Shown here piece after piece: positions 33,757 through 37,067 of a DNA stretch of 64,000 nt. The position numbers were made by a program, and so were the translations under genes. Source of the DNA: Candidatus Binatia bacterium (GTDB lineage: Bacteria; Desulfobacterota; Binatia; UBA9968; CAXXLF01). The stretch is from contig CAXXLF010000002.1 of the NCBI GenBank assembly GCA_963664015.2, positions 1,472,001 to 1,536,000 of the forward strand, read 5' to 3'. How positions within the stretch are numbered: position 1 is the first letter of the stretch; each line of letters starts with the position of its first letter. The notes beneath the pieces are model-generated. The model saw only the letters and a program-made list of their open reading frames with translations, was not told the DNA's origin and searched no databases.

Positions 33757-34072
33757 TTAGGCTACGTGACGGCGATTGTCTTCAAGACCGACCACTAACC
33801 TGACCCCGAGGGCGTGAGCGATCTTCTCCAGGGTTGTTAGAGAGTAGTTTGTGTAATTTGGGTTCTCCCGTCGCGCAATTCCTGAGTGAGTTTTACCCAC
33901 CTTCCGAGCAAGCTCCGATTGTGTTAGCCCTAAACTTTCCTCGCAAATTGGTGATCTGGTCAGCAAGGCATGTCCAGCTGAATTCTCTTTGAAACGCTCT
34001 CTTGAATGCCGGAGTTTTCAACTCTTTGCCGAGTCTTAAATCCAATGGCATGGCTTTTCCTTTTTTCTTCAT
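33757..34072 (-). pseudogene. XRE-family HTH antitoxin (HigA-like), frameshifted
   Basis: MKKKGK..PAFKRAF..QITNLR, then a frame change near 33940 to LGLTQSELARKVG..IARRE..LTTLEKIAHALG. Confidence 0.8.
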
Positions 34073-34538: not shown

Positions 34539-34580
34539 GGGGGTCAGGTCTATGGATTCTTGTTTTTGACCTAATCAATA
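34539..34580 (+). repeat. About 42-bp direct repeat flanking selO (left copy; right copy 36261-36302)
   Basis: GGGGGTCAGGTCTATGGATTCTTGTTTTTGACCTAATCAATA vs GGGGGCAGATCTATGGAATCTTGTTTTTAACTTAATCAAATA. Confidence 0.8.
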
Positions 34581-34732: not shown

Positions 34733-36229
34733 ATGACGTACGTCCCTAACAACGCTGCCGCCGCGCGATTCGCTTTCGACAATACGTATGCGCGTGAACT
34801 TGAGGGCTTTTACATAACCTGCAAGGCGGCGCATGCGGCGCAGCCGAGGGTGGTTCAGCTCAACCGTGAGCTGGCTGAAGAATTGAAGCTGGATGCCGAT
34901 GCTCTCGATTCAGAGGAAGGCGCGAAAATCTTTGTGGGCAATGAGACACCCGAGGGAGCGGTCCCGCTGGCTCAAGTGTACGCCGGCCACCAGTTCGGCG
35001 GCTTCTCGCACCAACTTGGCGACGGGCGGGCGTTGCTCCTGGGTGAGGTGATCGACCGCAACGGCCGGCGCCGTGACATTCAGCTCAAAGGCTCTGGCCC
35101 CACTCCCTTTTCGCGCTCCGGCGACGGCCGGGCAGCGCTTGGACCAGTGTTACGTGAATATTTAATCGGTGAAGGGATGCACGCGCTTGGTATCCCGACG
35201 ACACGGGCGCTTGCCGCAGTGGTCACAGGTGAGCCTGTCTATCGCGAGATCAGGCTGCCGGGCGCGGTTTTGACGCGCGTTGCTGCCAGCCACATTCGTG
35301 TTGGCACCTTTCAGTTCTTCGCCGCTCGCGGGGAACAGGCCCAGGTGCGTCGCCTGGCCGATTACGTGATCGATCGACACTACGGGGAGCTAAAGGGCCA
35401 CGCAACCCCCTATCTGGGATTGCTTGAGCGCGTGTGTGATAGACAAGCGGCGCTCATTGCTAGCTGGATGCATGTGGGCTTCATTCATGGCGTGATGAAC
35501 ACCGACAATATGACGATCTCCGGTGAAACCATCGATTACGGCCCGTGCGCCTTTATGGATCATTATGATCCAGCGACAGTCTTCAGCTCCATCGATACGC
35601 AGGGCCGCTATGCCTACGCCAATCAGCCAAGGATCGCGCAGTGGAACCTTGCACGGCTTGCGGAGACGCTTGTACCCCTGATCGATGCTGATGAAAACCG
35701 CGCCATGGCACGCGCGACTGAGGTCCTCAATGCCTTTCCAGAACAATACGAACTGCAGTGGCTAAAAGGCATGCGCGCGAAGCTCGGACTGGTCAGTGAG
35801 GACGAGGCCGATCTCAACCTCGCCACGGGGTTTCTCGCCGCAATTGAGGGCAAGAAAGTTGACACCACGTTGGCTTTCCGTTACCTCGCTGATGCCGCCT
35901 TGGGCCAAGAGGAGCCGATTCGCTCCCTGTTTACCGATGCGTCGGCCTATGAGCTCTGGAGCGGACGCTGGCAGGCGCGGCTTGCCCGCGAGGCGGCGAC
36001 GCCTTTGGCGCGGGCGCAGGCGATGCGGCGTGTGAATCCCGCGTTCATCCCGCGCAATCATCGAGTTGAGGAGGCCTTGAGTGCTGCAACGGAACGCGAC
36101 GATTACGCGCCTTTTACAACACTGCTAAATATCGTATCGCACCCTTTCGACGATCAGCCGGAGTTTGCCGCCTTTGCCCAACCTGCGCCAGACGGACGAC
36201 CGCGCTACCAAACCTTCTGAGGCACCTGA
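34733..36229 (+). CDS. selO: Protein adenylyltransferase SelO (YdiU), candidate selenoprotein; ends at 36220 if UGA is a stop
   Basis: YAGHQFG, LGDGRA, QLKGSGPTPFSR.GDGRA, GFIHGVMNTDN, TIDYGP, NPAFIPRNH; C-terminus YQTF-TGA-GT-TGA. Confidence 0.95.
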
Positions 36230-36259
36230 CTAACGCGTCCGGGCGACGCAAAAACGTCA
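36227..36259 (+). promoter_or_regulatory. Candidate bacterial SECIS element
   Basis: Upper stem GCGTC (36235-39)/GACGC (36245-49), loop CGGGC, lower pairing TGAC/GTCA; the loop begins 20 nt after the UGA at 36218-20. Confidence 0.6.
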
Positions 36260-36470
36260 TGGGGGCAGATCTATGGAATCTTGTTTTTAACTTAATCAAA
36301 TAGGTCGACGAACCGGTGCATCGCCAGAATCCATCGAAGCAAAACCGCGATTTTCACCAAATACACGTTGGCTTGACGACCCGCCGGTTCGACGCTATAT
36401 CTTTCGACAGAGTAAAAGGCCATTTAAATTTCCGTTAAATACAATCGACACAAGACCAGGAGGTAAGATT

Positions 36471-37067
36471 ATGGCAACCACAACAGAGCGCCCTCTCGCC
36501 GATGCGCTCACAGCAATCAGGACACGCCGTGCGATGAAAGAATACCTTCCCACCGAAATTCCTCGGGAGTGGATCGAGGAGCTGCTCGACGCCGCCCATT
36601 GGGCACCCAACCACAAATTGACCCATCCCTGGCGTTTCCACGTGTTTTGCGGAGAGGGGCGCGAGCGATTGGTCGAAGCCCGACAAGCAGCAGTACGTTG
36701 GGGCGCGGAGAAAAAGGGTGAGCAGGTGACCGAAGAGGCTCTCGGCTTCGCTCGGGCTAAGTGTTTTTCGTCCCCAGTCGTGATCATCGTTTCTATGGTG
36801 GGCGATGAGAACAAAATCATGGACCAGGAGAACTTCGCGGCCTGCTGGTGCGCTATTGAGAACCTGCTGGTCGCCGCGACCGCGCGAGGCCTGGGCAGCT
36901 ATCCCAGCACGGGCACCTGGATCGACGAAAACTTCCTTGGCCCAATCCTCGGACTCACAGAGAAAGAGCGACCGGTGGCGTGCGTTTTCTTGGGGTACTC
37001 GGAGCAGGAGACTATGGCAAAGCGCCTGCCCGTGGATCGCCATACCACCTGGTACACAGACAAATAA
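36471..37067 (+). CDS. Nitroreductase family protein (YdjA-like)
   Basis: AIRTRRA, AAHWAPNHKLTHPWRF, AIENLLVAATARGLGS. Confidence 0.9.
   Translation: MATTTERPLADALTAIRTRRAMKEYLPTEIPREWIEELLDAAHWAPNHKLTHPWRFHVFCGEGRERLVEARQAAVRWGAEKKGEQVTEEALGFARAKCFSSPVVIIVSMVGDENKIMDQENFAACWCAIENLLVAATARGLGSYPSTGTWIDENFLGPILGLTEKERPVACVFLGYSEQETMAKRLPVDRHTTWYTDK

Follow-up and report, generated by a model that had tools for sequence, protein, structure and literature searches.

Does an in-frame TGA near the 3′ end of a bacterial selO gene encode selenocysteine (Sec), and could the signal for its insertion lie beyond the stop codon? Few selenoprotein and kinase-fold families are conserved as widely as SelO, and the question is raised by a selO gene in a 64,000-nt stretch of DNA (hereafter the window) from Candidatus Binatia bacterium, assembly GCA_963664015.2, contig CAXXLF010000002.1. 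A previous reading of these letters (the original prediction) had proposed a Sec-containing bacterial SelO with a selenocysteine insertion sequence (SECIS) located mostly within the 3′ untranslated region (UTR). Coordinates below are positions within the window, and selO and the parts of its hairpin are on the plus strand. Our analysis supports this proposal by genome comparison: window selO is very probably a selenoprotein gene in which insertion of Sec at residue 496, here predicted, is directed by a hairpin in the 3′ UTR. We read it in this way because the UGA stands opposite a conserved Cys, the codons that follow it behave as codons, the hairpin lies at SECIS distance, and the genome carries the full Sec machinery.

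An in-frame UGA at the antepenultimate residue of SelO

The selO frame opens with an ATG at 34733 and, in the list of open reading frames (ORFs), 495 codons are open ahead of the first TGA. The 3′ end, 36206–36229, reads TAC CAA ACC TTC TGA GGC ACC TGA, confirming the ending Y-Q-T-F-[UGA]-G-T-stop given in the original prediction. The product passed the thresholds of Pfam SelO (PF02696, 387.9 bits, cut-off 22.8) and NCBIfam YdiU (NF000658, 571.8 bits, cut-off 431). Two NCBIfam SelO equivalog models did not reach their thresholds (a score of 433 for a cut-off of 850, and 408 for one of 900), and no selenoprotein-named NCBIfam model was among the matches. The product aligned end to end with four solved SelO/YdiU proteins (9jym, 6iii, 6k20, and 6eac; E ∼1e-100), with HGVMNTDNM identical and D[YF]GP and LGDGR conserved. 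These three we take to be the kinase-like active-site motifs, the catalytic residues being presumed. Judged by these matches, the 498-residue product is a SelO/YdiU-type protein nucleotidyltransferase (AMPylase), with activity predicted. Residue 496, the proposed Sec, falls on the antepenultimate Cys of all four solved proteins. The remainder of selO is intact, and family models matched it along its full length.

The hairpin beyond the frame is a 15-nt element composed of GCGTC (36235–36239), CGGGC (36240–36244), and GACGC (36245–36249), starting 14 nt 3′ of the first UGA. Nineteen bases separate that UGA from the loop, which therefore begins at the 20th base and has G at its position 2, just as originally described; the second UGA is 10 bases from the loop. 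RNAfold drew both helices, the GCGUC/GACGC stem and the lower TGAC/GTCA pairing that had also been proposed, and the latter was judged by eye not to be kept in that form in relatives. The published bacterial SECIS (bSECIS) model has a loop of 3–9 nt, an upper stem of 4–16 bp, G within the first two positions of the loop, a UGA–loop distance of 16–37 nt, and a minimum free energy (MFE) of ≤ −7.5 kcal/mol (PMC13188914). The selO hairpin falls within all the geometric limits (a 5-nt loop with G as its second base, a 5-bp stem, and a spacing of 19 nt). Its MFE was −7.3 kcal/mol for the bare hairpin (28 nt), −8.9 kcal/mol with the lower stem (39 nt), and −14.1 kcal/mol for 50–60 nt, so that the proposed match to the bacterial consensus stands with a borderline free energy. 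The second UGA, 10 nt from the loop, lies outside the 16–37-nt range, in keeping with the earlier argument that it is too close for recoding, and fits the role of stop.

Conservation of the UGA, the following codons, and the hairpin

For comparison, an order-level sample of 123 genomes was used, including that of the host. A SelO match was found in 48 of these (counting the unpublished G464, which has an N-terminal fragment only), and the 3′ end was readable in 44. At codon 496, 25 genomes carry TGA, and the other 19 (22 loci) carry TGC. The 25 TGA genomes had been found by protein homology, so the set is unbiased by a chosen motif. In all 25 Sec forms, the GG and AC of the next two codons were invariant, with variation confined to the third positions (C13/T9/G3 and C23/A1/T1), and the TGA after them was likewise invariant. 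The TGC forms showed the same wobble-only variation in both codons, and 17 of the 22 Cys-form loci also stop at TGA. Wobble-only change in GGN-ACN is the pattern of translated codons. The spacer past the second TGA and the sequence past the hairpin varied freely in the aligned 3′ regions.

The hairpin was present at a fixed offset in 25/25 TGA genomes of the order, and was absent or decayed in the TGC forms. Scored against a 17-mer hairpin consensus, Sec forms had a median of 16/17 (n = 28, three further loci included), and Cys forms had a median of 9.5/17 (n = 22), ranging from relics at 15/17 to a background of 7–8. By genome comparison, TGA, two codons, next TGA, and hairpin thus appear to be conserved jointly, clearly beyond chance. 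The TGA is not confined to this strain, and TF-TGA-GT with its hairpin stands beside TGC orthologues, which was the check on relatives named in the original prediction. Across the phylum, 400 further genomes were sampled, and an in-frame TGA in selO was found in none of the 22 that bear SelO.

The check on read support likewise came out in favor of the TGA. Two public runs contain contigs that extend across TGA, stop, and hairpin, with 0 differences in one and 2 in the other. For a relative of ∼92% identity in the public runs, no difference between 36202 and 36411 was among those listed.

The selO gene was fragmented in two relatives: in G490 it lies in three pieces (C14:2683–4178), and in G484 it is split into two pieces with 2 TGA (C13:143330–144815). 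G490, which is 92% complete, had no SelA match.

Sec machinery and other predicted selenoproteins of the host genome

The host genome (97.29% complete, 2.14% contamination) contains all four genes for which a check had been proposed. The selA gene was recognized by a SelA match of 521 bits, selB by a SelB wing-3 domain of 73.6 bits in a frame of 648 amino acids, and selC as a tRNA-Sec of 74.2 bits with anticodon TCA. The selD gene (372.7 bits) is itself Sec-containing: it has a single in-frame TGA, which occupies the canonical AG-U-AAK site. Its SECIS, UGA-N12-GGUC-CUGCC-GACC, has the core GUCCnGnCGAC in common with the selO hairpin. Among the 25 TGA genomes of the order, 22 had a strong SelA match; the remaining three are 93%, 66%, and 92% complete.

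The host genome is selenoprotein-rich. In-frame TGA codons were present in 10 of its 20 AhpC/TSA-family matches, in the contexts W-U-P-x-C or T-U-P-P-F, and hairpins follow with loops starting 14–27 nt past the UGA. Examples are found at C1:855686–856063, C2:1218197–1218538, and C2:587757–588155; the locus C2:322616–323068 has two TGAs, one of them without a convincing hairpin. None of the four molybdopterin oxidoreductase matches of the host genome had an in-frame TGA, so there is no FdhA-type reference SECIS in this genome. On the minus strand at C2:1714161, a 100-codon open frame is followed by an in-frame TGA (...F-F-TGA-S-V-I-D-E-G-P-V-D-F) and, 16 nt on, by GGUCCCGUCGAC, which has the same core as selD and selO; this frame is a possible further selenoprotein gene. 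In view of the many nonsense mutations noted for the window, crude searches for ORFs broken by a single TGA were made twice and yielded 110–112 candidates; a motif filter reduced these to 72, none of which was convincing without homology.

Proposed Sec-SelO in wider collections and a probable second clade

The 120 closest protein clusters (≥83% identity, P0002–P0121) were compared at their C termini. Seventy of them, including the protein of the window itself, end in ...TF, 48 in ...TFCGT, one in ...TFCG, and one in ...RTY; their public names are "YdiU family protein" or "protein adenylyltransferase." With 70 of the 120 ending in ...TF, public gene calls commonly stop at the selO TGA, and these 70 clusters appear to be annotated three residues short, with the Sec missed.

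The pattern Y-x-T-[FY]-TGA-GGN-ACN-TGA was scanned in 185,579 species genomes and in metagenome contigs. The species genomes gave 47 stretches, of which 27 were at selO ends and 20 were chance matches. The window-type hairpin was shared by 26 of the 27. These come mostly from species that are also in the order sample, under labels such as Candidatus Binatia and delta proteobacterium. The metagenome scan gave at least 118 stretches: at least 72 had SelO upstream and a hairpin, at least 34 were chance matches, at least 5 hairpin-bearing stretches were too short for the SelO test, and at least one was a short stretch with a second hairpin type. At least six SelO-linked stretches scored below 14/17, one of which (L205) is cut by the contig end inside a window-type hairpin.

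The second hairpin type was found in the species-genome scan at L119, from a Reyranella-labelled metagenome-assembled genome whose SelO is 46% identical to that of the window. Here, the gene ends N-Y-R-T-Y-TGA-GGT-ACC-TGA and is followed by CUGCUCC-GUC-GGAGCGG, a hairpin of other sequence with its loop at the same distance from the UGA. The L119 genome has a SelA match of 537.6 bits. In a sample of 41 genomes of L119 relatives, itself included, SelO was present in 22, and 20 loci were read: 3 carry TGA-GGN-ACC-stop with the second-type hairpin, and 17 have TGC or TGT. Sec forms of this clade have the hairpin CUGCUCC-GUC/GGG-GGAGCGG. One of them stops at TAA, so a UGA as final stop is not required in Sec-SelO. 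More distant Cys forms among the Reyranella relatives have assorted GC-rich hairpins right past the stop. On this evidence, the Reyranella-labelled group is probably an independent second Sec-SelO clade.

A third variant was seen at L159, a Binatia-type SelO of 78% identity, where a longer, re-paired stem with a GGU loop stands in the same place. When 82 distinct 3′ regions were aligned, the stem plus a sixth outer pair had 88.2% of cells paired, against 6.9–54.8% with the 3′ partner slid. The covariation score was 0.084 versus 0.056 in shuffles (reached by 0 of 500), with changes on both sides in three pairs. Structurally, more weight is carried by the observation that a small G-loop hairpin is predicted, at an unchanged distance from the UGA, for three sequences that differ from one another.

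Alternation of predicted Sec and Cys within the order

A tree was built from 42 SelO proteins with the Sec/Cys column excluded; 32 were from the order (18 Sec and 14 Cys) and 10 were outgroup rows. The 32 proteins of the order formed one clade (Shimodaira–Hasegawa-like approximate likelihood ratio test, SH-aLRT, 96), and all 10 outgroup rows were Cys. Within the clade, the 18 Sec and 14 Cys forms were interleaved, with 7 changes on the best tree, at least 2 of which are forced by the starred branches alone. Constraining the Sec forms together cost 80.5 log-likelihood units, with p = 0.032 in the approximately unbiased test (p-AU), a generous value as the group was named post hoc. We infer that Sec replaced Cys within this order-level clade, the relatives being labelled Candidatus Binatia or "delta proteobacterium." Because the two forms interleave and the hairpins behind nested Cys forms have decayed, the simplest reading of the tree would be one gain of Sec in the order clade, followed by repeated reversion to Cys with decay of the SECIS.

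Residues elsewhere in the protein were compared between the two forms. At column 491, Sec forms have R12/H6 and Cys forms C11/R1/G2, and the same trend was seen in the 120 closest clusters. Cys-form orthologues mostly read C-Y-[RQ]-T-F-C, that is, with a second Cys at position −5. One Sec form, L083 (G469), carries Cys at this −5 column. Cys272, in the motif DYGPC, is Cys in 18/18 Sec and 14/14 Cys forms of the order. In the solved enzymes, the Cys of the activation loop ("fiCnhsd") aligns with Phe283 of the window protein, eleven residues after Cys272; the solved Cys-containing SelO/YdiU proteins thus differ from the window clade, which has the invariant Cys272 instead.

Alternative explanations

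Several observations weigh against a SECIS-directed Sec at this site. The bare hairpin, at −7.3 kcal/mol, is just short of the −7.5 kcal/mol of the bSECIS model. Fold energy was tried as support for the hairpin and rejected: a 71-nt segment had z = 0.03 (102 of 200 shuffles folded equally well or better) and a 50-nt segment z = −0.21. As the fold energy of the region is unremarkable, the case rests on comparison and not on thermodynamics. The covariation is slight, most pairs being near-invariant, and the support is mostly sequence conservation; in addition, the 82-region alignment has L189 and four Reyranella-type rows out of register, and these were scored against the structure. Rfam gave no family match at the hairpin, for SECIS or otherwise, but two chance-level matches (E 4 and 6). 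The hairpin is not exclusive to TGA in the second clade, where the nearest Cys forms, L258 and L259, retain it. At L189 (SelO 45% identical, ending P-Y-R-T-F-TGA-GGG-ACG-TGA), there is no hairpin at the SECIS position and the UGA is drawn inside a stem (L189:4403–4452); this is the one unexplained exception among the 82 distinct regions. The core GUCCnGnCGAC was rejected as a genome-wide SECIS signature, since of its 35 occurrences only those of selO and selD are behind a long in-frame ORF. SelA was above the cut-off in 114 of the 123 order genomes (the unpublished G466, G482, and G500 counted) and, being near-universal, cannot separate Sec from Cys forms. Both pattern scans required GGN-ACN-TGA and so are no evidence for codon conservation. 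The public DNA runs that match best may be the source sample, hence possibly not independent, and the RNA runs X15 and X17 match only 35700–35932 and 36038–36071, at ∼90% likeness, without reaching the TGA.

Against this background, the first TGA could be a genuine stop, with SelO ending ...YQTF, its redox Cys lost, and the hairpin serving mRNA stability or regulation. The ordinary fold energy, the 70 public calls that end in ...TF, and the post-stop hairpins behind Cys-form SelO of the Reyranella relatives all speak for such a stop. It does not account for the retention of GGN-ACN-TGA in 25/25 genomes with the wobble-only variation seen in TGC forms, when the later spacer varies freely, nor for an intact hairpin that tracks TGA within the order and decays in TGC forms. 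The genome also has the full Sec machinery, and no terminator-like site was found at the hairpin on either strand; we therefore regard a genuine stop as improbable. Constraint on the two following codons would equally be explained if the UGA were read through without Sec, by near-cognate insertion of Trp or Cys or under a variant code in which UGA is a sense codon. Nothing else speaks specifically for such decoding, and the next UGA, six bases on, is the stop in 25/25 Sec forms. With 17 of 22 Cys-form loci terminating at TGA as well, UGA is a stop in the genomes of this order. The site is moreover that of a conserved redox Cys, a classic Sec/Cys pair, and tRNA-Sec(UCA) and SelB are encoded in the genome, all of which makes non-Sec read-through highly improbable.

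The TGA might also stem from faulty sequencing or assembly, or it might be a mutation that recently inactivated a gene undergoing decay. The caveat in the original prediction that the window has many in-frame stops would favor this, as would the fragmented selO genes of G490 and G484. That caveat proved to have no bearing on codon 496, which is TGA in 25 genomes of an order whose representative here is selenoprotein-rich. The TGA is shared by these 25 species-level genomes and by the at least 72 metagenome stretches with SelO and hairpin, it is carried by contigs from two public runs, and the rest of selO is intact and matched end to end by family models. Error or decay appears to be refuted as far as comparative data allow, and we assign it next to no likelihood. 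Decoding of UGA(496) as Sec is the reading that we retain.

The selO locus and its neighborhood

Features of the locus are collected in Table 1. Two 39-nt direct repeats flank selO (34540–34578 and 36261–36299); they are 87% identical and 1,721 bp apart, and were found neither in the rest of the 3.5-Mb genome nor in 274 fetched loci. The repeats may mark selO as a single-gene unit inserted into the host genome. The upstream neighbor is an XRE-type helix-turn-helix gene (33757–33966, minus strand; PF01381, 43.6 bits), and the downstream neighbor is a nitroreductase-family gene (36471–37067, plus strand; PF00881, 95.4 bits). A nitroreductase gene adjoining selO was absent from the 21 relatives' loci that were checked.

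Table 1. Features of the selO locus in the window, and loci of the second clade
Feature	Position	Strand	Basis
selO coding sequence with UGA(496) read as Sec; 498 residues, ending Y-Q-T-F-U-G-T, then stop	34733..36229	+	ORF list; translation with TGA = U
Codon of Cys272 (in DYGPC, region of the activation loop); possible redox partner for Sec496	35546..35548	+	Column alignment in the order
Arg491 codon, 5 residues ahead of Sec; column mostly Cys in Cys-form orthologues	36203..36205	+	Column alignment in the order
In-frame TGA, proposed Sec496 codon, at the conserved antepenultimate-Cys position	36218..36220	+	Alignment with 9jym, 6iii, 6k20, 6eac; order-wide codon comparison
GGC ACC, codons of Gly497 and Thr498, predicted to be translated past Sec	36221..36226	+	Wobble-only variation in 25 Sec forms
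Second TGA, proposed true stop	36227..36229	+	Invariant in 25/25 Sec forms; 10 nt ahead of the loop
SECIS-like upper stem-loop: 5-bp stem GCGUC/GACGC, loop CGGGC; entirely 3′ UTR	36235..36249	+	RNAfold; consensus match; pairing count
GTCA, which may be the 3′ arm of a lower stem; partner TGAC (36227–36230, stop codon included)	36256..36259	+	RNAfold
Second-clade Sec-SelO loci (probable)	L119/L255, L256, L257; metagenome L169, L177, L191, L210

Discussion

The statement in the original prediction that bacterial SelO is normally Cys-containing is out of date. The deep-Sep study of 2025 described a "selenoprotein O-like" protein with Sec, predicted in Desulfosediminicola ganghwensis IMCC35004, as the first bacterial Sec form of the family, with a bSECIS-like structure past the UGA and TGA homologues in other Sec-using bacteria (PMC12013277). 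It is listed with PF02696 and one Sec as WP_136798779.1 in a table of a 2026 review (PMC13188914). Compared by these descriptions only, it resembles window selO in Pfam family, Sec/Cys pair, and bSECIS-like structure, and differs in coming from another lineage. There was no record of Desulfosediminicola among the 47 pattern matches from the 185,579 species genomes, so its gene presumably lacks the exact motif with a TGA stop. SelO went unmentioned in the available text of a 2022 selenoprotein review and in the main text of the BSepDB paper. A Sec-containing bacterial SelO was thus already predicted in 2025, and window selO is a well-supported further member. To this, the present comparison would add a large Binatia-labelled clade, an independent second clade, repeated switching between Sec and Cys accompanied by decay of the SECIS, and a SECIS that naturally lies past the stop.

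Human SELENOO has a CxxU motif with Cys664 and Sec667 of 669 residues, and the available text of PMC3994087 describes 75Se incorporation and redox behavior via this C-terminal motif. The window protein belongs to the same family and likewise has its proposed Sec at the antepenultimate position (U496 of 498). CxxU is not found in window SelO, where R-Y-Q-T-F precedes U and there is no Cys at −3. The two also differ in the insertion signal, a small bacterial-type hairpin 14 nt past the UGA in the window and a distant eukaryotic kink-turn element in animals, and window SelO has no mitochondrial targeting context, unlike animal SELENOO.

As for the position of the element, a bacterial SECIS is functional in E. 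coli when located within the 3′ UTR past a C-terminal Sec, according to PMC10778597. The example given there is an engineered mammalian thioredoxin reductase with the E. coli fdhF element as a SECIS past the stop (Arner et al., 1999, as cited in PMC10778597). As far as that account goes, the Sec near the C terminus and the stop between UGA and 3′-UTR SECIS are as in window selO; the reductase is a laboratory construct, whereas the selO arrangement is natural and clade-conserved. In a limited literature search of partly available sources, which is no proof of absence, this engineered case was the only bacterial 3′-UTR SECIS to turn up. In window selO, the upper stem-loop lies wholly beyond the stop, and comparison supports the originally predicted Sec-SelO with 3′-UTR SECIS.

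Decoding may be envisaged as follows. When the ribosome arrives at the UGA at 36218–36220, the stem-loop at 36235–36249 would be positioned 14 nt downstream, just outside the ribosome, with its G-rich loop 19 nt past the UGA. SelB carrying Sec-tRNA(Sec) would bind the stem-loop and bring Sec to the A site, after which Gly and then Thr would be joined to the chain. By the second UGA the hairpin would already be unwound, and a release factor would terminate translation. Stopping at the first UGA may also give a 495-residue Sec-less product, in which case the proportions of the two forms would depend on selenium supply.

In P. syringae SelO, a disulfide reportedly joins the C-terminal Cys to an activation-loop Cys. 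Sec496 may have a role in redox switching or sensing, for which Cys272, invariant in the clade, could be its partner.

A broader and more speculative proposal, which we consider rather unlikely to hold as a whole, is that SelO is a recurrent hot spot for the gain of Sec. The antepenultimate Cys would put any stable post-stop hairpin at SECIS distance, so that a single TGC→TGA change could co-opt the hairpin, and this might have happened independently in the Binatia-labelled clade, the Reyranella relatives, Desulfosediminicola, and eukaryotes. Sec and Cys would then toggle with selenium supply, with a compensating Cys at −5 upon loss of Sec. The clade-wide SECIS would be a natural one wholly within the 3′ UTR, and the Sec-less isoform would let selenium tune the redox control of the AMPylase.

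For annotation, the point to be made is that the 70 of the 120 closest public clusters noted above appear to be three residues short. The stop between UGA and SECIS would be a natural counterpart of the design used in E. coli for recombinant C-terminal selenoproteins, as that design is described in the available literature. Within the clade, the Cys forms present SECIS decay after loss of Sec, together with a second Cys five residues upstream. Orthologues that alternate between Sec and Cys in effect provide a natural experiment from which the contribution of selenium to an AMPylase could be learned.

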